In this document: in pieces, positions 174 to 59,685 of the stretch | How the letters are laid out: every line of letters starts with the position of its first letter | How positions within the stretch are numbered: position 1 is the first letter of the stretch | Assembly: GCA_964016885.1 (NCBI GenBank) | Contig: OZ024740.1 | Coordinates: 360,964,001-361,028,000 of the forward strand | Reading direction: 5' to 3' | Source of the DNA: Eledone cirrhosa | Lineage: Eukaryota | DNA length: 64,000 nucleotides | Translations under genes and position numbers: made by a program | The notes under the pieces: model-generated | The model's database searches: none | What the model saw: the letters and a program-made list of their open reading frames with translations, nothing else | Told to the model about the DNA's origin: nothing

Positions 174-814
174 CACACACACATGCACATCAGATATCGG
201 TGTTTAAAGAGAAAGAGAATAGAAATGGTGCTGGCAGAAATGCAGTGAGAAGCAATAGGAGAATATTTTGCAGTGAAGGAATGGAACTGTGTGTGATATT
301 AAGACAAACAACATCAAAAAGCATTTTTGAAAACAAATATTAAACTATTATATAATGTAGTTGTAGTAAAATATATAGTAGCATATGTTTTACATGAAAA
401 AATAAAACTACCTGATACAGACTTCAATGCCCAGAGTGAGATCATTCATTAAAACCTCATTAAGTGCCAGTTACTTGCAATACAAGTTTCACCTAGTGGA
501 TGGTGAAAATGACCAGCATCTAGGTGAAACTTTTTATTCAATTAATTGCCACAGACACACGCGTACATAATTATATACATATTTTTCAAAATGCATGAAG
601 AAATGCATTCCAATCAAAAGTTTACAAGCATGTTGAATAAAATAATGTTTAATGCTATATATATATATATTACTCACACATTCTCTAATGAATTTATTAC
701 GTTTTCGCATTTTCTCATAATTAAGGTATATATGTTAAATTTTCTCTTAGGTTAATCACTACCTTGATTAAATCTTAACCATTTAACATCTCAGGGTATG
801 TCATGTATCATTAT

Positions 815-867
815 ATTTTGTCTGATGAGGACGTACTGTTGTACATCCGAAATATGTATAATAAAAT
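815..867 (+). ncRNA. Minimal type I hammerhead ribozyme motif (Penelope-like pLTR)
   Basis: ATTTTGT-CTGATGA-GGACGTAC(TGTT)GTACATCC-GAAA-TATGTA-TA-ATAAAAT: stem I 7 bp with one G-U, conserved core, stem II with one mismatch, quasi-palindromic stem III. Confidence 0.75.
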
Positions 868-1007
868 GAAATTGATCAAAAGAACACCTATTTTATTAAT
901 ATTTATATTTTAATATTAATAACTCCGGAAAATTATTTTACCGTAGAGTGCTTCCAATCTACTGTAAAACTCATTCTTTGACATAATCATTGAATATTGT
1001 TTAACAC

Positions 1008-1940: not shown

Positions 1941-1983
<43 letters not shown>

Positions 1984-2132
1984 ATACTTTGGGAGGGTCA
2001 TGTTGCCAATAAGAAACACACGCACCAGTTGCTTTCACTTCAATTTATTATATATTTATAAATTTACAAATCTACAAACTTATAAATTTCTGGTTAGTTG
2101 GTTGGTTCCACAACCAGATAGTTGTTTATATA

Positions 2133-2179
2133 TAGTCAGAGTCCTTTCGTCACACACTCTGTGACCTCTTCAGTGACTG
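2133..2179 (-). ncRNA. Hammerhead ribozyme motif, left arm of fold-back 2
   Basis: Reverse strand: AGTCA-CTGAAGA-G-GTCACA(GAGTG)TGTGAC-GAAA-GGAC-TC-TGACT. Confidence 0.78.
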
Positions 2180-2285
2180 GGGATTCCTTTCTTTGTTTCT
2201 GTGCCTTTCCTTTCTTCTATCCTACGCCAGAAAAATGGCGTAGGATAGCAGAAAGGAAAGGCACAGAAACAAAGAAAGGAATCCC

Positions 2286-2332
2286 TAGTCACTGAAGAGG
2301 TCACAGAGTGTGTGACGAAAGGACTATGACTA
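2286..2332 (+). ncRNA. Hammerhead ribozyme motif, right arm of fold-back 2
   Basis: TAGTCA-CTGAAGA-G-GTCACA(GAGTG)TGTGAC-GAAA-GGAC-TA-TGACTA: 6-bp stem I and 6-bp stem II. Confidence 0.78.
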
Positions 2333-2788
2333 TATATAAACAACTATCTGGTTGTGGAACCAACCAACTAACCAGAAATTTATAAGTTTGTAGATTTGTA
2401 AATTTATAAATTTATAAATATATAATAAATTGAAGTGAAAGCAACTGGTGCGTGTGTTTCTTATTGGCAACATGACCCTCCCAAAGTATAACAATATCGG
2501 TTTCAACACACGATTTCAGATAAAGAATCTTGCTAAACAAATTCAGAAACGAAATATATATATATATATATATTATGTACGTATAGGAAGGTGTAGAGAA
2601 TGATGTACTGTAGAAATATAGACAGCAGATCCTACAAGACATTTTATACTTAGTTCGAAAATATTCCAGTAACATTACTAATTGAATAATATGTATAAGG
2701 ATGACAAATATCAGATACGGTATAGACGTTTGTACATGTATGTAGATAGATATAGAGAAACAGTGAGAGGTATATATATATACACACA

Positions 2789-2865: not shown

Positions 2866-3078
2866 TGTGTGTGTGTGTATATATATATATAGATAGAGAG
2901 AGAGAAGGGGGATTCAAACAGATAGTTACAAAGAGATAGTAAGTGAAGGAGAATGTTTAAGATTGTATGAGAAAGTGAAATTGAAAAAGGAAAATTTAGA
3001 TTTTATTGACTGTTTTCTGTTTATATGGAAGAATAATAAGATTTATTGTATATAAAAGTTGTTAACAGAAATACTCAC

Positions 3079-3195
3079 TATCCTATTTTGAGTTTCGTCT
3101 TCCAGACGTTTCTTGGCCTCGGCAACTAGACTATCGAGACCAGCTCGGGATGTTTGGTATGTCTCTCGTTCAATATCGATGTCTTGTTTTGTCAG
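3079..3195 (-). CDS. RUFY2: RUFY2-like exon (coiled coil), 117 nt, phase 0-0
   Basis: LTKQDIDIERETYQTSRAGLDSLVAEAKKRLEDETQNRI (family TYxxSRxGLD). Acceptor gtttgcag, donor gtgagt. The gene continues beyond the left edge. Confidence 0.9.
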
Positions 3196-14880: not shown

Positions 14881-16549
14881 ATCATCATCATCAACGTTTA
14901 ACGTCCGTGTTCCACGCTTGCATGGGTTTGGACGGAGGTATTCCCACTTGAGGCAAGAGTGATTGTCTTGCTCGCATAGGACTGTCTGGCAGGTTTTCTA
15001 CAGTTGGATGCCCTTCCTAACACCAACCACATTTACAGTGTGGGTCTGGGAGGTTTTTACCGTGTTGCCTACACGGCCACATTACAGCGTGGGCTGTGTG
15101 TTTTTTTGTCGTGACACCTACACGATCTCATTTGTTTCGGCCTGGATGGCGTGGCACCGACATAACTTTACATAGAAGGGGGTGGTGTGGATGGGGTGGG
15201 GGTGGTGGGACGGGGTGTATTTTGTTAGAGATGCCTACTGGCTGTAATAGGTTTTACTATGTATTTAGGTAAGGCGGGTCTTCTCTGTTACTGAGTACCG
15301 CCAAAGGTCTCGGTCCAGTGACATTGTCTTGGAGAGGTGTAAGTGTGTGAGGTCGGAGTTTATCAGCTCGTCCCAGGTTTTTCTAGGTCTGCCTATTCCG
15401 TGGCTACCGTCTATCTTTATTGCCCTGCACTTTGTTATACAGCTATCGACTTTCATGCGCATCACGTGTCCATACCAACGTAGCCTTCTCTCGAGTAAAC
15501 AACATCTGATCCCTCTTATTTCTAATTTTTTCCTTAGTTCGTTTATGCTTTGCCGTTCACGCGTATATTACTGTTACACATCCAGCGGAGCATGCAAGCT
15601 TCGTTCCTCTCTAGTCTGCGTATATCCTCTGCACACAATGCCCAGGTCTCACTGCCATGCAACATTGCTGTTCGTATGCAGGCATCATACAACCTGCCTT
15701 TCATTTTTAGGGAGAACCCTTTAGCAGCTAATAGTGGTATAAGCTCTCTGAACTTTTTCCATCCAGTTCTGACTCTAGCTACTGTACTTTCTGAGCACCC
15801 TCCCCCACTGCTGATTTTGTCACCCAGGTAACGGAAGCTGTCCACTATTTCTATAGAGCCCTCTGCGCAGTTGTAAGAGCTAGTATTTTGTGGGCACTTG
15901 CTGCTACTTATTGCACTAGAGCACCGGCCACATGTAAAATCTATGTTCTTAGTTAGCTTACCTGTGATCCCACTACATCTTTTATGCACCCATACTTTGC
16001 ATTTGGGACATAAAATGGAGTTTCTACCTACGCCTTTCCTACACACTGAGCATGGCCATTTCCCAGAAGGGACCGCCGCCTTATTTTCTTTCCTACAAAC
16101 TAGAACTTTAGTCTTAGCCAGGTTAATTTTAAGTCCTTTTGATTCTAGGCCATGCTTCCATGTTTGGAATTTCTCTCTAGCTCGGCCATTGATTCAGCTA
16201 TGAGTGTCAGGTCGTCTGCGTATAGGAGTTCCCATGGGCAGCCGGTCTTGAACTCCTCTGTTATAGCCTGAAGGGCAATAATAAATAGTAGGGCGCTGAG
16301 AACAGAGCCCTGATGGACGCCAACTTTTACGCTAAACTCTTCACTATGTTCGTTGTTAATTCTAACCTTGCTGACTGTTTCTTTATACATGGCTTGTATC
16401 GCTCTCACAAGCCATTCGTCAACACCTAGTTTTCTAAGAGCCCACCAGATAATGGAGCGGGGGACTCTGTCGAAGGCTTTCTCCAAGTCGACAAAAGCTA
16501 AGTAGAGGGGTTTACCTTTAGCTAGGTACTTCTCCTGTAGTTGTCGTAC
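14881..16549 (-). mobile_element. 5'-truncated RTE-clade LINE (RT, 3' UTR, (GAT)n tail)
   Basis: ORFs 16145-16612, 15543-16046 and 15265-15465 give AFVDLEKAFDRVP, GVHQGSVLS, LLYADDL, FRYLG and GRPRKTW. Two frameshifts. Confidence 0.93.
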
Positions 16550-23971: not shown

Positions 23972-24270
23972 TTAAACTGTTGCAGGTCTGCTCTCTTTGG
24001 AAAGATATGAGCAACATTTGAGTTCTAGAAGGCTGACATTCTGGGCAAGAAGAACTGATCATATGATTAGTTTGGGTGAGTGACTCCCTCATTTCCAAGC
24101 TACACAACCTATTGAGTAACATTACTCCAAAGACCCTTCAGAGAAACCCCATTTTGGCCATTTGTGTTTCCTATCACATTCTGAAGATAATGATAGTAAT
24201 TGTAATGATGGTAACAACTACCATCATCACAATAACAACAATGGTGATGATAGTTACAGTAATGGTGATG

Positions 24271-25045
24271 TCACTGGTGATGATAGTTATGGAATGGTGA
24301 TAAAACTGGTGATGATAGTTATGGAATGGTGATGACACTGGTGATGATAGTTATGGAATGGTGATGACACTGGTGATGATAGTTATGGAATGGTGATGAC
24401 ACTGGTGATGATAGTTATGGAATGGTGATGACACTGGTGATGATAGTTATGGAATGGTGATGACACTGGTGATGATAGTTATGGAATGGTGATGACACTG
24501 GTGATGATAGTTATGGAATGGTGATGACACTGGTGATGATAGTTATGGAATGGTGATGACACTGGTGATGATAGTTATGGAATGGTGATGACATTGGTGA
24601 TGATAGTTATGGAATGGTGATGACACTGGTGATGATAGTTATGGAATGGTGATGACACTGGTGATGATAGTTATGGAATGGTGATGACACTGGTGATGAT
24701 AGTTATGGAATGGTGATGACATTGGTGATGATAGTTATGGAATGGTGATGACACTGGTGATGATAGTTATGGAATGGTGATGTCACTGGTGATGATAGTT
24801 ATGGAATGGTGATGACACTGGTGATGATAGTTATGGAATGGTGATGACATTGGTGATGATAGTTATGGAATGGTGATGACACTGGTGATGATAGTTATGG
24901 AATGGTGATGACATTGGTGATGATAGTTATGGAATGGTGATGACACTGGTGATGATAGTTATGGAATGGTGATGACACTGGTGATGATAGTTATGGAATG
25001 GTGATGACATTGGTGATGATAGTTATGGAATGGTGATGTCACTGT
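24271..25045 (+). repeat. 32-bp minisatellite, about 24 copies
   Basis: Unit GGTGATGATAGTTATGGAATGGTGATGACACT, near-identical copies with an occasional ACATT or TCACT variant. Confidence 0.95.
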
Positions 25046-25611
25046 TGATCACGGTAACAGTAGTGAGGATAATAACAGATGGTTATGATGATGATGATGA
25101 CAAAAGTAGGAAAAAAGGGTTGATTAAGGTATTCTATATTATAATGTTTCTACTGTAATGTCTGTCAGTCTGTTACAACTCTGACGTCACAGTACCATTT
25201 CTAAGAAGTAGTTTTTATTAGTTAAAAGCACGCATACATAAAAATGTTTATTGTCAGTTTTTTTTTCATGTTCTTTATTCTTCACACACAGAAAAAAAGA
25301 CATTGTATCTGCCAATATCTCACTCTTTCACTTTGTCTGCCAGTCCCCCCTCCCCTGTATTTTTCTATCTATTTATCTATATCTTTCCATACTTATGGTT
25401 GTCAGTCAATAAAACAAATCAGGAGACGAACAGATATGACCCGCTTGTTAAGCTGTATATTTATACATACACACACACACACACACCAATGTAACAATGT
25501 CAAATGATGATGATTACACACACACACACGTGTGTGTGTGTGTGTGCATGTGGACAGGGTGTCCCAAAAAATGTATACACACTTTGCTTACCAATATAGG
25601 CAATATATATA

Positions 25612-26229
25612 TATACGTGAACGACAAAGCATAAATGAATTGAGAGAGAGACTGAGCATAAGAGGAATCAAATGCTGCGTGCAGGAGAGGCGGTTACGCT
25701 GGTATGGACATGTGATGCGTATGAAGGATGACAGCTGCATAAAAAGGTGCAGAGCACTAGAAGTTGATGGAAACCGCGGAGTGGGGAGACCCAAGATGAC
25801 TTGGGATGAGGTGATAAAAGCCGACCTTACCCAACTACACCTCTCAAAGTCAATGACACACGACCGTGACTTCTGGCGTCACGCAGTAATACAGGGTACC
25901 CGACCTCCCATGGGTACATGCTGAAGCATATAAACAATATGCCCCCCCCCCCCCCCACCGCAAGGTGGTCGTGGAGGTGCCACGGCAAAAAAGCACCCAG
26001 CCCACACTGTAAAGTGGACGTGTAGGCGCCACGAAAAAGCACCCAGCACTCACTGTAAATGAGGTTGGTGTTAGGAAGGGCATCCAGCTGTAGAAATCAA
26101 GCCAGATCAGTTCCTGTATGAGCAAGGCATGGTCAGCCGACCAGACACTGCCCACAACAGGACAACCCGTCTAACCCATGCTAGCGTGGAAGAACGGACG
26201 TAAAACGGTGATGATGATGATGATGATGA
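25612..26229 (+). mobile_element. RTE LINE 3' fragment (left arm of large fold-back)
   Basis: ORF 25532-25924 contains RRLRWYGHVMR..GRPKMTW, followed by the 3' UTR and (GAT)n tail. Confidence 0.9.
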
Positions 26230-36004: not shown

Positions 36005-38230
36005 TTTAAAATCTTAGTGGGAGTCCTTGACACAAAGGAGAAGTGGATGGTATGGTTGTGGCACAAGAAATGAGGAGGGGACTAGGCTTCTGGAGTTCTG
36101 TGATGCCCTCGATTTATTGATCTGTTACACAAACTTCAAGAAACCAACCATCTGATTACCTACCAAACAGGGGCAAATACAAGCCAAATAGACTTCCTCC
36201 TCACCAGGAAATGAAACAGGCAAATGGTTGTAAATGCCAAGTCCCTTCCTGTTGGGAGATACATTCCTCCCCAGGAATGTAACTCCCAACATAGATTAGT
36301 TGTCAGTGACTTTAGAGTAAGGGCTAGGTGGACCAAGAGACAAAAGCCGGTCTGGAGAAGGAAGACATGGAAGCTGAGAGAACCTTCTGTAGGTCCCACC
36401 AAGACAGAAAGTGACATGGTGGTGGAATGACAAGGTAGTAAGAGCCATTAAAATAAAGTGACAAGAATGGAGGAAACAAAAAGCAATACCAGATAGCTAG
36501 AAGTATATCTAGAAAGGGGAGAAGCAGAAAAGAAGTTTGCACATGTTTTACATCATGAAGATCAGAAGCGTGAAATTTCAGGATTGCAAGACAGTATACT
36601 ATAAAAAATATGTCCAAAATGATAGCGGAGCACTTGCCCTATCTGACGCTGAAAAGAAGGAGGCATGGAAGATGTACTATGAAAGGCTGCTGAGCAAAGA
36701 AAATAAATGGGATAGAGAGGGCCTACCCCATGCAGACCCTACGGAGAGACCAGCCATAAAAGTTGACAACAGTATGATAGATAAAGCAATTAAGGTCATG
36801 AAGGTAGGGAAAGCAGCTGGACCATCTGGCATGGTAGAATATGAGCTAGCCAGATGCATAGTTAATCAAGTAGTACAGGATGGTGTCACACCCATCAACT
36901 GGTGCAGCTGTATCATTGTAAATTGTAACAAAGACAAAGGAGATGCACTAGAGGGAAGTAACTACAGTGGCCTCAAGATGACAGACCAGGTCATGAAACT
37001 TGCTGAAAAGGTTATAACACAATTAATAATGGAAAGAATCAAGTTAGATGAGATGCAGTTTGGATTTATGCCAGGTAGGTGTATTACCGATGCCCTCTTT
37101 CAGGTGAGACAACAGGAGAAGTACTTAGCTAAGAGTAAACCACTGTATCTGGCATTTGTAAATATGGAGAAGGCCTTTGACAGAGTCCCACACTCTATAA
37201 TCTGGTGAGCACTTAGGAAGCTAGGTGTAGATGAACTGCTTGTGAGGGCCATGCAGGCCATATATAGAGGAGCAACCAGCAGAGTGAGGGTTTGCAACAA
37301 GTACAGTAATGAATTGAAGTGCAGGTGAGGGTCCACTAGGGATCAGTCCACGGTCCACTCATGTTTATTATTGTACTCCAGGGCATCACTGAGGAGTTTA
37401 AAACTGGTTCTCTATGGGCGCTCCTATATGTTGATGACCTAGTCCTTATAGCTGAATTCATAGGAGAATTAGAAGCAAAATTTCAAGCTTGAAAGAACCT
37501 ACATTTGAAAGGCCTAAAAGTAAACTTTGAAAAGACGAAAGTCTTAATAAGTAAGAAAGAAGACAGGAGAGTGATACCACGAGGAAGGTAGCACCTTCTT
37601 TGATATGTCAGAAAGGGGTGGGCAAAAATTTCATAATGAGCACAGTGTAATTTATGAACGCACAAGACAAGATACACAGGAGAAGTGAGCACAAAGAGCA
37701 CACATGAAATAGATTCCTTCAGTTACCAAGAAGGCCCCTAGAAGTTATTGAAAATTTGCTAGGCGATCAAATTAGCAATGGGTGAGGATGCAACAAAAGT
37801 GTGACAGCTGGAAGATGTTTAGAGAGCTATGATGACAACAAAATTCTTTTTCTCAAAGTGAAGGGCAGACTGTATGATGCCTGTGTGCAAACTGCAATGC
37901 TACATGGCAATGAAACATGTAATGTTAGTGTGCATGAGCAACATAGCATGAGAAAACTGGGGGAAAAACTTGAATAAGTGGAATTGATGTAGTGTGTAAA
38001 AGAGAAGACTATGCTGGTATGGGCATGTCTTGTGCATGGAAGATGACAGCTGTATAAAGAAATGCAAAGAAATCCCAGTAGCTGCTGGGAACTATGGAAG
38101 AGGTAGACTCAGAAAGACATAGGATGGGGTTGTGAAGACTGACTTTAAAAAACTAAACTGCACAATTGAAATGGCTAATAACTGTGAGGGATGGCCCTAT
38201 AATGTGCTGAAGAAAACTTGATCAACAACA
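36005..38230 (+). mobile_element. Old, multiply disrupted RTE LINE (APE end and RT)
   Basis: SQHRLVVSDF, KAAGPSG, QFGFMPGRCITDALF, AFVNMEKAFDRVP, LLYVDDL and RLCWYGHV, with many stops and frameshifts. Confidence 0.88.
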
Positions 38231-47489: not shown

Positions 47490-48185
47490 GCATCATCATT
47501 TTACGTCCGCTTTTCCCTGCTTGTAAGGGTGGGACGGGTCTTATTCAGCACAGCATCTCTCCACTTGTCACGGTCCTTCGTGATCTCTACTGTGAGCTTC
47601 AGCGATCTGAGGTCTGTTCTCACCACCTACGCCCATGTTTTTCATGGTCTACCTCTACCACGTCTTCCTTCAACTGGCATTTCCTGGCACTTCTTTACCC
47701 ATCAGTCATCCTCCATGTGCATCACATGTCTATACCACCTCAGTTTCCTCTCTCGCACACTACATTCTATCCCTCTCAGACACAGTTCCTCTCTCAACAC
47801 ATTCATGATGGGTCGTTCATGCACATTTACACAGCACATCCAACGGAGCATGCTTGCCTCATTTCTCTCCAACCGTTGCATATCCTCTGCAGTTGCTACC
47901 CATGTCTCACTACCATGCAGCATCGCGCTCCTCACACAGGCATCATATAACCGGCCTTTCATACGCAGGGAGAAACCCTTCTTCGTCAGCAGAGGAAGCA
48001 GCTCCCTAAACTTCTTCCAACCCGTCATTCTAGATACTATGGCCTCGGAACACGCCTCTCCCATGCTAATCTGATCTCCTAGGAACCGGAAGCTATCCAC
48101 CACTTCTATAGCACCCGCCTGCATTTGAAAAATGTGTCTATCAATGCGACTTCTACTGTCTAATTTCCCTGTACATCTACTGTAT
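47490..48185 (-). mobile_element. RTE LINE 3' fragment
   Basis: ORF 47702-48283: VVDSFRFLGDQI..GWKKFRELLPLL..LHGSETW..LRWYRHVM; (GAT)n tail at 47490. Confidence 0.88.
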
Positions 48186-48380
48186 ACTGCTATGTATTGA
48201 TATATAATCAGAACACTACAAATCAAAACTGTATGTTGCAGTTTAGTTTGGTAAAAATAACAACTAAATCTCCCTGTAATCATATCCAGCTGTCATAAAA
48301 ATGAACACATTTGATAATGTTATTCAGAGTATACTATTCCACTCTTTCCCAGGATTGCTCTGTGGTTAAACAACAGCTTT

Positions 48381-54928: not shown

Positions 54929-55334
54929 TTAAATGATAAAAATGGTGATTGCATGAATTGAAATGAAAAACATGAAATGAAATTTCCTACTCACACCTAT
55001 GTAGGTTTAAGTATGTAGGTTTCTATGAAGTTTCATCCCATAAGACATTTCTTGGTTGCTATAATGATAGAGGCCCCAGTCCTATCATAAAAAAGCAATA
55101 TGAAATGAACAACACAATATGCTACCTGGTCGAAGAATTGAACCTGGACCATATGACCATGAATGCAACATCCTAACCACTAGGCCAATTAACTCCAGAT
55201 TTCTTTCATAGTTTCTTTCATGTTGATTTTTTATTTAATAAAAGTTCCAGAGCAAACAAAATTGTTATGCAAAATACTATATGGAATATAAAAAGTAGTG
55301 TTTTCAACTAATGTTTTTCAACAAAGTTTTGTTT

Positions 55335-58300
55335 CATATACTGTAGTATACTGTACTATATGATATACTGTAGTATACTGTACTATATGATATACTGTAG
55401 TATAATGTACTATATCATATACTGTAGTATACTGTACTGTATTATAATCTATTGTATCATATACTGTAGTATACTGTACTATATCATATACTGTAGTATA
55501 ATGTACTATATCATATACTGTAGTATAATGTACTGTATCATATACTGTAGTATACTGTACTATATCATATACTGTAGTATAATGTACTGTATCATATACT
55601 GTAGTATAATGTACTGTATCATATACTGTAGTATACTGTACTGTATCATATACTGTAGTATAATGTACTATATGATATACTGTAGTATAATGTACTATAT
55701 CATATACTGTAGTATACTGTACTGTATTATAATCTATTGTATCATATACTGTAGTATACTGTACTATATCATATACTGTAGTATAATGTACTATATCATA
55801 TACTGTAGTATAATGTACTGTATCATATACTGTAGTATACTGTACTATATCATATACTGTAGTATAATGTACTGTATCATATACTGTAGTATAATGTACT
55901 GTATCATATACTGTAGTATACTGTACTGTATCATATACTGTAGTATAATGTACTGTATCATATACTGTAGTATACTGTACTATATCATATACTGTAGTAT
56001 AATGTACTATATCATATACTGTAGTATACTGTACTGTATCATATACTGTAGTATAATGTACTGTATTATATACTGTAGTATACTGTACTGTATCATATAC
56101 TGTAGTATAATGTACTATATCATATACTGTAGTATAATGTACTGTATCATATACTGTATTATACTGTACTGTATCATATACTGTAGTATACTGTACTATA
56201 TCATATACTGTAGTATACTGTACTGTATCATATACTGTAGTATACTGTACTGTATCATATACTGTATTATACTGTACTGTATCATATACTGTAGTATACT
56301 GTACTATATCATATACTGTAGTATAATGTACTGTATCATATACTGTAGTATACTGTACTGTATCATATACTGTAGTATACTGTACTATATCATATACTGT
56401 AGTATAATGTACTATATCATATACTGTAGTATAATATACTGTATCATATACTGTAGTATAATATACTATATCATATACTGTAGTATAATGTACTGTATTA
56501 TATACTGTAGTATAATGTACTGTATCATATACTGTAGTATAATGTACTGTATCATATACTGTAGTATAATGTACTGTATCATATACTGTAGTATAATATA
56601 CTGTATCATATACTGTAGTATAATATACTATATCATATACTGTAGTATAATGTACTGTATCATATACTGTAGTATAATGTACTGTATCATATACTGTAGT
56701 ATAATGTACTGTATCATATACTGTAGTATACTGTACTGTATCATATACTGTAGTATAATGTACTGTATCATATACTGTAGTATAATGTACTGTATCATAT
56801 ACTGTAGTATAATGTACTATATCATATACTGTAGTATAATGTACTGTATCATATACTGTAGTATAATGTACTGTATCATATACTGTAGTATACTGTACTG
56901 TATCATATACTGTAGTATAATGTACTGTATTATATACTGTAGTATACTGTACTATATCATATACTGTAGTATAATGTACTGTATCATATACTGTATAATG
57001 TACTGTATCATATACTGTAGTATAATGTACTATATCATATACTGTAGTATACTGTACTATATTATATACTGTAGTATACTGTACTATATCATATACTGTA
57101 GTATAATGTACTGTATTATAATGTACTGTATCATATACTGTAGTATAATGTACTGTATTATATACTGTAGTATAATGTACTGTATCATATACTGTAGTAT
57201 ACTGTACTATATCATATACTGTAGTATACTGTACTGTATCATATACTGTAGTATACTGTACTGTATCATATACTGTAGTATAATGTACTGTATCATATAC
57301 TGTAGTATACTGTACTGTATCATATACTGTAGTATAATGTACTGTATCATATACTGTATTATACTGTACTGTATCATATACTGTAGTATAATGTACTGTA
57401 TCATATACTGTAGTATAATGTACTGTATCATATACTGTATTATACTGTACTGTATTATATACTGTAGTATAATGTACTGTATCATATACTGTATTATAAT
57501 GTACTATATCATATACTGTAGTATACTGTACTGTATCATATACTGTAGTATAATGTACTGTATCATATACTGTATTATACTGTACTGTATCATATACTGT
57601 AGTATAATGTACTGTATCATATACTGTAGTATAATGTACTGTATCATATACTGTATTATACTGTACTGTATTATATACTGTAGTATAATGTACTATATTA
57701 TATACTGTAGTATACTGTACTGTATCATATACTGTAGTATAATGTACTATATCATATACTGTATTATACTGTACTGTATCATATCAGTAGTATACTGTAC
57801 TGTATCATATACTGTAGTATAATGTACTGTATCATATACTGTAGTATAATGTACTGTATCATATACTGTAGTATACTGTACTATATCATATACTGTAGTA
57901 TAATGTACTATATCATATACTGTAGTATAATGTACTGTATCATATACTGTAGTATAATGTACTATATCATATACTGTAGTATAATATACTATATTATATA
58001 CTGTAGTATAATGTACTATATCATATACTGTAGTATAATGTACTGTATCATATACTGTAGTATAATGTACTATATCATATACTGTATTATACTGTACTGT
58101 ATCATATCAGTAGTATACTGTACTGTATCATATACTGTAGTATAATGTACTGTATCATATACTGTAGTATAATGTACTGTATCATATACTGTAGTATACT
58201 GTACTGTATCATATACTGTAGTATACTGTACTATATCATATACTGTAGTATAATGTACTGTATCATATACTGTAGTATAATGTACTATATCATATACTGT

Positions 58301-58845
58301 AGTATACTGTACTATATCATATACTGTAGTATAATGTACTATATCATATACTGTATTATAATGTACTGTATCATATACTGTAGTATAATGTACTGTATCA
58401 TATACTGTAGTATAATATACTATATCATATACTGTAGTATAATGTACTGTATCATATACTGTAGTATAATATACTATATCATATACTGTAGTATAATGTA
58501 CTGTATCATATACTGTAGTATAATGTACTGCATCATATACTGTAGTATAATATACTGTATCATATACTGTAGTATAATGTACTGTATCATATACTGTAGT
58601 ATAATGTACTGTATCATATACTGTATTATACTGTACTGTATCATATACTGTAGTATAATGTACTGCATCATATACTGTATTATATACTGTAGTATAATAT
58701 ACTGTATTATACTGTACTATATCATATACTGTAGTATAATGTACTGCATCATATACTGTATTATAATGTACTATATCGTATACTGTATTACAATGTACTA
58801 TATCGTATACTGTAGTATACTGTACTGTATCATATACTGTATTAC
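55335..58845 (+). repeat. 27-bp satellite, ~3.5 kb (about 130 units); degenerate continuation at 59686-59757
   Basis: Unit TATCATATACTGTAGTATA(A/C)TGTACT(G/A). It translates as a repeating 9-mer (IIYCSIMYC), which explains the long ORFs. Confidence 0.97.
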
Positions 58846-59685
58846 AAGTGTACCACCATGCATTTTGGGAGTAAAAGCCCAGGTCCACATACTCCCTCCA
58901 CAACACTGATATCAAGAAGTCTTCTTGTGAACGTGACCTGGGCATTACTGTCGACAATGATTTGCGTTGGACGAAGCACAGTTCTAAAATTGTCAAGAAG
59001 GTCAAGGTTGTCTTAGTATCACTCAGCAAGACCTTTGTCAGCCGCTCTCCAGATATCTATTTAAGGCTGTATATAGCTATGTTGCGGCCACACTTAGAAT
59101 TTGCATCACCAGTCTGGAAACCCTACCTTGTTCAGAACATTGACCGTCTGGAAACTGTTCAGAGACATGCAACCAAGCAAATAACCTCCATCAGGCATCT
59201 ACCATACTCTGAACGCCTTGCTTCTCTGGGCATGGATACATTGAAGCTCCGACGTCTGGCAACTGACTTGGTAAACACCCACAAAATTATTAACCATCTT
59301 GCCAACAACAACCCTGAGAACCTTTTTGATTTCCATGTGTCTAGCACATGTGGGCATGCCAACAAAGTCAGAAAACAGCACAGCTCCCATGAATTTCGGA
59401 AACATTTTTTCACACTCAGATTTGCTGAAGCATGGAACAAACTACCTGCATCAGTTATTAGCTGTCGAGACACTGCATCCTTTAAAACCACCATGCTTCC
59501 TGAAATTCGCCAACACTGCACCTAATATTCCCCCTTCCATACACACGCACACATGTATTTCATGACTCGTACTCTGTTCATTTTCCTGACATTTGTACAT
59601 TATTCTATGTACAAAACATGCACCTTTGATGAGTTGTAGTGCACCTGAGCACTGTACACAATCATTTCCTTATTATTATTATTAT
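58846..59685 (+). mobile_element. CR1-group LINE 3' fragment inserted in the satellite edge
   Basis: ERDLGITVD..LRWTKH..LRPHLEFASPVW..RKHFFTLRFAEAWNKLP; (ATT)n tail; satellite units on both sides. Confidence 0.92.

Follow-up and report, generated by a model that had tools for sequence, protein, structure and literature searches.

The ~520-bp hairpin close to the start of our window (the whole 64,000-nucleotide stretch of Eledone cirrhosa DNA that was analysed) is very probably what an abundant Penelope-like retrotransposon left behind: a two-armed, head-to-head copy, truncated at its 5' end and inserted in a (TA)n tract within an intron of a RUFY gene. On this reading the hairpin likely arose as a side effect of insertion, and we predict that its hammerheads are silent whether or not the hairpin is present. 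An earlier note on this DNA had proposed a different role, in which the antisense arm would mask the hammerhead in the RUFY pre-mRNA and so let such elements persist in introns, with A-to-I editing as a possible means of release.

The structure described in that note, with ~255-bp arms and a 6-nt loop, is present in the assembly (Table 1). The arms (1976-2229 and 2236-2497) match at 251 of 254 aligned bases, differing by three substitutions (2139/2326, 2179/2286, and 2216/2249) and one 8-nt indel inside a tandem 8-mer, and the minus strand is predicted to fold at -447.7 kcal/mol, compared with -120.4 +/- 6.0 kcal/mol for shuffled sequences, none of 100 shuffles being as stable. Each strand does carry a single type-I hammerhead located in its 3' arm (plus 2286-2332 and minus 2134-2178), and the two do differ at the cleavage site, UC on the minus strand and UA on the plus. 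Helix I has 5 bp in the minus hammerhead and 6 bp in the plus one, helix II has 6 bp preceded by one unpaired extra base, and helix III of the minus motif is a self-complementary stub; thus the conserved core, the extra base before helix II, the short helix I, and the palindromic helix III stub that define minimal dimer-type hammerheads of Penelope-like elements (PLEs) are all present. Folding predictions put the cost of closing helix III in a monomer at ~5.5 kcal/mol. Compared by sequence alone with the minimal metazoan PLE hammerheads described in PMC4209133, the octopus motifs share the type I topology, the short helix I and long helix II, the extra base between positions 9 and 10.1, G10.1-C11.1, and the tiny palindromic helix III, and they differ only in host species and in one UA-to-UC mutation. 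An Rfam scan of the window at the gathering threshold returned no matches and recovered none of these hammerheads, and for this reason their identification relies on our own descriptor, which gave 2-8 loose and no strict hits per 1.36 Mb in three shuffled controls of 1.36 Mb.

Table 1. Features of the hairpin and its surroundings, in window coordinates.
Feature	Position	Strand	Remarks
(TA)n microsatellite, left target flank	1944..1979	.	overlaps the arm end
Arm without the tail: 3' end of the Penelope-like element's pLTR, in the sense orientation of the RUFY transcript	1976..2229	-	
Minimal type-I hammerhead whose UC cleavage site is a private mutation (2139)	2134..2178	-	
6-nt loop, the inversion junction	2230..2235	.	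similar to the element sequence immediately upstream of the right arm
Arm with the tail: 3' end of the pLTR, antisense to RUFY	2236..2497	+	
Minimal type-I hammerhead, UA cleavage site typical of the family	2286..2332	+	
56-nt element tail, right arm only	2498..2553	+	
(TA)n, right target flank	2554..2572	.	
Coiled-coil exon of the RUFY2-like host gene	3079..3195	-	5' boundary approximate; donor at 3078 opens the hairpin-bearing intron

The hairpin sits in a 6.5-kb intron of a RUFY2-like gene, ~525 nt from the splice donor. When a RUFY2-like protein was mapped to the locus, residue 381 fell at window position 3079 and residue 382 began 3,447 bases before the window, and the peptide of the coiled-coil exon is 100% identical to RUFY2-like proteins from several Octopus species, which confirms the minus-strand RUFY host gene that had been presumed. 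The minus strand carries RUN-domain exons at ~22.6, 17.4, and 13.7 kb of the window (the best structure match being to RUFY3), FYVE exons lie ~147 kb before the window, and the RUFY exons are collinear on either side of the hairpin. The earlier statement that the antisense arm precedes the ribozyme in the RUFY pre-mRNA is correct, and in simulated growing RUFY transcripts the hammerhead was predicted to be already paired on emergence, so that the proposed duplex would indeed cover the motif fully as the transcript grows.

The same intron holds two further Penelope hammerhead insertions, both absent from the earlier note. One, at 1096-1416, is a second head-to-head hammerhead palindrome from a different Penelope family, with 129-bp arms, a 63-nt spacer, and motifs at +1302-1367 and -1145-1210; the other, at 814-868 (+), is a minimal hammerhead from a third family, single and unmasked, which lies antisense to RUFY and is followed by (TA)n at 1012. 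The next intron of RUFY contains, ~10 kb before the window, another copy of the hairpin's own family (G000:C1:360953794-360954543, L031/L032), in which an intact UA hammerhead occupies the sense strand and the inverted, tail-bearing arm breaks off within the ribozyme core. Elsewhere in the RUFY span there is an unmasked sense minimal hammerhead with a short helix I and a UU site (G000:C1:360904885-360904977, L101). The gene region also includes a 3.5-kb satellite of 27-bp units (window 55330-58853) and an 812-bp array of 32-bp units (24238-25049), and by eye the translations of four frames resemble fragments of LINE-type reverse transcriptase (36513-37208 (+), 47702-48292 (-), 15265-15567 (-), and 25514-25924 (+)).

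Relatives of the right arm occur across the genome at 97-99% identity among the best 40 of 1,040 candidates scored. Longer copies of the family, all outside the window, have one ORF in which a reverse transcriptase (with YVDD) is followed in the same frame by a GIY-YIG endonuclease at the C terminus; the Pfam matches of these copies were below the curated cut-offs (RVT_1, E-values of 3e-4 to 5e-3; GIY-YIG, 9e-4), and the Atlas clusters nearest to the element protein (0.96-0.98) included some holding RT or GIY-YIG members. In translated copies a CX4CxxC linker precedes the C-terminal endonuclease, and a CX2-5CxxC linker is given as a feature of the Neptune and Nematis clades (PMC8557442). Judged from these translations, the anatomy is that of a putative endonuclease-bearing Penelope-like element of the Neptune or Nematis type. 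Family copies have two fixed end points, one that includes a 56-nt tail and one that lacks it, and beyond these they run into (TA)n; the tail of the window copy (2498-2553), which the earlier note did not record, is on the right arm only. Some family copies have a pLTR with hammerhead, a partial tandem repeat, ahead of the ORF; in the tandem copies L006, L018, and L028 the pLTR plus tail reads into the ORF start, and in L004, L011, and L094 a pLTR follows the ORF end. The window copy is an extreme truncation with no ORF remaining, and (TA)n flanks both of its sides, as it does most copies, a target-site duplication being unreadable inside such a tract.

The inverted head-to-head copy, the junction palindrome, the tail at one end, the 5' truncation, and, to judge from the flanks, perhaps the (TA)n targeting are shared with endonuclease-bearing Penelope-like elements as described in PMC3846280 and PMC8557442, as is the combination of RT and C-terminal GIY-YIG with a CX2-5CxxC linker seen in the clades Neptune and Nematis, although the octopus tail, at 56 nt, is longer than the 30-40 nt given there. 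The suggestion that these are inverted pLTRs of the Penelope type is upheld. We found no published description of this octopus Penelope family in the literature searched; subscription papers or supplements may contain one. In the N-terminal third of the ORF (L090, L093, L094, and L097) there is a long low-complexity stretch rich in asparagine, threonine, and histidine, which recalls the N-rich inserts described in Adineta Penelope ORFs (PMC3846280). Animal non-LTR retrozymes (bioRxiv 10.64898/2026.07.22.740005) are likewise short, hammerhead-bearing derivatives of Penelope pLTRs, but are described as tandem direct repeats, whereas the octopus hairpin is an inverted pair; we rejected a retrozyme identity on the basis of the inverted arms and of tandem arrangement in only 3 of 22 neighbours within 5 kb.

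The hairpin has a great many counterparts. A 33-nt core has 3,470 exact copies in the genome (control 0), its first 14 nt have 30,223 (control 5; this count pools related subfamilies), and 780 pairs of the 14-mer are arranged head-to-head with a gap of 100-130 nt (control 0), that is, the genome has at least 780 equally tight hairpins. Neighbours within 5 kb of the first 100 listed 33-nt cores were head-to-head in 18 cases, tandem in three, and tail-to-tail in one; for the first 100 listed 14-mers there were 10 head-to-head and one tail-to-tail neighbours within 400 bp, and 15 and five, respectively, within 5 kb. An inverted partner was found within 1.5 kb at 19 of 29 distinct best loci, a set biased to the best matches. 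Junction centres vary by locus, and the distance that the arms reach upstream, measured from the core, runs from a few or tens of bases up to 2.9 kb. With head-to-head pairs this abundant and their centres and arms this variable, the antisense-first arrangement on both strands is simply head-to-head geometry, which is the default both in the octopus genome and in print: it is reported as the most frequent arrangement of Penelope-like insertions (PMC3846280), and minimal hammerheads paired at a distance of 100-700 bp, one on each strand, were reported from Schistosoma in 2014 (Cervera and de la Pena, PMC4209133). Multi-kilobase head-to-head palindromes of the hairpin's element, reaching deep into the ORF, occur at L091, L095, L089, and L098; their arms reach as far as 2.9 and 1.6 kb from the core in the upstream direction, and L098 is exactly symmetric. 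We also observed a recurrent palindrome of ~110-130 bp beside (TA)n, hammerhead-less by our own pattern (G000:C7:40353002, C9:34657052, C17:20038414, C17:42317650, C22:15222078, and C1:360947034, and also upstream in L027), which is likely to be a stub left by a different family of fold-back elements.

These counterparts bear on two other origins for the palindrome, both of which we consider very unlikely. Perfect hairpins are a known artefact of long reads, and a fold-back read chimera or assembly error would give a structure of this general kind; here, however, the arms differ at three sites and by an 8-nt indel, the tail is one-sided and the flanks are unmirrored, both ends coincide with the two end points at which family copies stop, the RUFY exons to either side are collinear, and there are hundreds of like loci in the genome. 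A self-contained, palindromic MITE-like element moving as a unit would match the shortness, the near-perfect terminal inverted arms, and the hundreds of similar-sized copies, and the loop sequence does recur at one other locus (G000:C1:241865310). That locus, however, has a different haplotype, centres and arm lengths vary among copies with no uniform internal structure, the arms grade continuously into multi-kb copies bearing the ORF, and the tail is on one arm only.

How a Penelope insertion acquires its mirror image can be approached from the pairs themselves. In 57 head-to-head pairs (drawn from 82 loci, many of which were fetched because they were pairs) the arms were discordant at 21 of 374 polymorphic sites, compared with 28% between loci, and the tail was on exactly one arm in 52 of the 57; together, arm concordance and the one-arm tail indicate that both arms come from one source and that each insertion builds its own mirror. 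Among 37 pairs scored of 52 loci, the tail-bearing arm was longer in 18, the tail-less arm in 14, and the two were equal in five, a split between the longer arms that favours two separately primed strands over a simple snap-back. We would envisage the element's endonuclease nicking both strands of the TA tract, with reverse transcription beginning twice, at two start sites of which one would give the tail and the other not, on RNA template from one source copy; both strands would stop ~56-60 nt upstream of the hammerhead core and then be joined end to end. In vitro, cleavage and extension of both target strands are reported, the tail is accounted for by two start sites of the RT, and a dimer is predicted (PMC11167929). 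The head-to-head insertion mechanism of Penelope elements is called undefined in PMC8557442. No Penelope paper using the term twin priming was found in the literature searched, most subscription papers falling outside it.

The competing snap-back account, in which a single cDNA folds on a 2-nt microhomology at its 3' end, copies itself, and has its centre trimmed later, is in our view possible, if doubtful. Self-priming is the option favoured by Arkhipova et al. (PMC3846280) and would suit arms of one haplotype, the -2 to +2 nt overlap with which most junctions close, and the window copy itself, where the loop belongs to the tail arm, 4 nt longer; either arm of such a palindrome could also lose length through later central deletions. 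A pure snap-back, however, predicts that the tail arm is always longer, and in 14 of the 32 pairs with unequal arms the tail is on the shorter one: barring later deletion of the centre, a short tail arm would not be templated by a tail-less first strand and is unexpected from a tail-bearing one. Double priming at two sites remains our preferred account, and a snap-back would alter the insertion step only, leaving the verdict on masking unchanged.

The difference between UC and UA has no functional meaning that we can support, and we rejected this candidate: among 125 arms the cleavage-site base was A in 122, T in two, and C in one, the window arm, and a 22-mer with UC has four exact copies in the genome, the window included. 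The UC site is a private, one-off mutation, one of three point mutations between arms whose divergence (3/254) fits the family mean of ~1%. Among the best DNA-search matches the arms seemed to disagree unusually often at one site; we set this aside as ascertainment, the allele being absent from loci picked by position. There is no sign of conservation at the window locus, where arm divergence equals the family mean.

If sense-strand intronic hammerheads harm splicing, fold-backs should survive preferentially in introns, with ADAR editing unmasking the ribozyme as a switch; this is the model implied by the earlier note, and the strand of intronic motifs bears directly on it. Our sample combined ten spans of dynein genes, defined by same-strand DHC_N2 and Dynein_C exon matches (10 of 19 such spans being taken wholly or partly), with the RUFY span, for 11 spans and 1,551,071 bases in total; it mixes families, comes mostly from dynein genes, and assumes nested genes to be absent. 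Of 77 descriptor hits we kept the 73 with a homologue in another span and dropped four, and we called an intact motif unmasked if no inverted arm within 8 kb upstream covered it. In these 1.55 Mb of gene spans unmasked intact hammerheads numbered 16 sense and 17 antisense (p 1.0), degenerate unmasked ones 20 sense and 29 antisense, and masked ones 24 sense and 16 antisense (Fisher p 0.35), so that no depletion of unmasked sense-strand copies was found (33 motifs in 11 spans, a small sample). Excluding three sense calls judged doubtful by eye leaves 13 unmasked sense and 17 antisense motifs (p 0.58); three of the unmasked sense calls, including one of those excluded, are close to the edge of a span and have little sequence upstream. 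The first 1.36 Mb had leaned towards masking (4 sense and 7 antisense under the strict unmasked definition), and a further 190 kb evened the counts.

Several observations do lean towards masking. The motif is predicted to pair completely and during transcription, splicing can be blocked by fast ribozymes within introns (Fong 2009, as cited in PMC10919898), masked motifs are sense in 24 cases and antisense in 16, four of the five intact sense motifs in RUFY are masked, and the hairpin's family alone has no unmasked sense copy in the sample, among a handful of insertions. In addition, of ten fold-backs with only one arm passing the scan, nine had the sense arm intact (p 0.02, post hoc); when nine of the ten were inspected, threshold effects and single substitutions were seen, and this skew is probably due to chance and thresholds. 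Against the model, the unmasked intact motifs are evenly divided between strands and include one inside RUFY itself (G000:C1:360904885), slow intronic ribozymes were without effect on splicing (Fong 2009, as cited in PMC10919898), and Penelope hammerheads are reported to be inactive as monomers, slow as dimers, or protein-dependent (PMC4209133, PMC6765202, and PMC11167929). For instance, the Schistosoma monomer did not cleave and dimers did so weakly (PMC4209133; reviewed in PMC6765202), and the Anolis hammerhead cleaves only with the element's protein, and RNA ends at the site were looked for in vivo and not seen (PMC11167929). Any one RUFY transcript holds only one arm's motif, so the hairpin offers no dimer partner; by analogy with these relatives, the window hammerheads are predicted to be silent whether or not the hairpin forms. 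A-to-I editing would also strike the A-rich catalytic core, more likely spoiling the ribozyme than releasing it, and the locus has the divergence of an ordinary family member (3/254 between arms) rather than a sign of conservation.

We therefore regard the masking and switch model as very unlikely. Masking is not needed for persistence, although there may be a mild strand bias, and the ideas of the hairpin as a design for persistence in introns and as an editing-tuned switch are not supported: the geometry is the default product of insertion, the unmasked counts are near-equal, related minimal hammerheads are reported inactive alone, and the UC site is a one-off mutation. In the literature searched we found no papers on strand bias of intronic antisense hammerheads in retrotransposons, and nothing on point about octopus hammerhead ribozymes or octopus Penelope palindromes.

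One element of the earlier proposal, that the duplex would suit ADAR, is plausible on the strength of the predicted near-perfect 254-bp pairing, and an intronic duplex of this kind is likely an ADAR substrate. In the RUFY pre-mRNA the stump would fold into this duplex, be spliced out with the intron, and probably be edited by ADAR as other inverted repeats are, with no selected role. Porath et al. (2017, PMC5625713) name Penelope as massively hyper-edited in lizard and give octopus the highest hyper-editing, with a very high share of loci in near-perfect duplexes; octopus is omitted from that paper's breakdown by repeat family. The window hairpin resembles their palindromic Harbinger repeat of frog in having a long near-perfect duplex, as predicted from its sequence, and a short loop. 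In a sample of 1,634,300 octopus bases we counted 163 near-perfect inverted repeats (arms of at least 40 bp, within 2 kb, simple repeats excluded), amounting to 2.6% of bases; 37 of the 163, or 13.8 of 43.2 kb, were homologous to the hammerhead families or to the hairpin's element, a rough label, since some long entries do no more than contain a Penelope copy and stubs lacking a hammerhead go uncounted. That about one-third of the near-perfect inverted-repeat bases in this 1.6-Mb sample are homologous to these families lends some support to a speculative extension, which we put forward tentatively: Penelope insertions might build fold-backs each time by double priming at two sites, and the resulting thousands of hairpins could be a leading source of the near-perfect intronic duplexes behind the record A-to-I hyper-editing of octopus.

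Taken alone the window locus matters little: it is a young stump that shows no conservation and comes from a retroelement of known type. The masking model, if true, would reveal a novel means by which a parasite carrying a ribozyme conceals itself within genes; the strand count argues against it. The octopus genome as a whole, with its many hammerhead fold-backs from several Penelope families, is a large natural data set that bears on two questions: how Penelope elements come to insert head-to-head, and which repeats supply the duplexes on which octopus ADAR acts.
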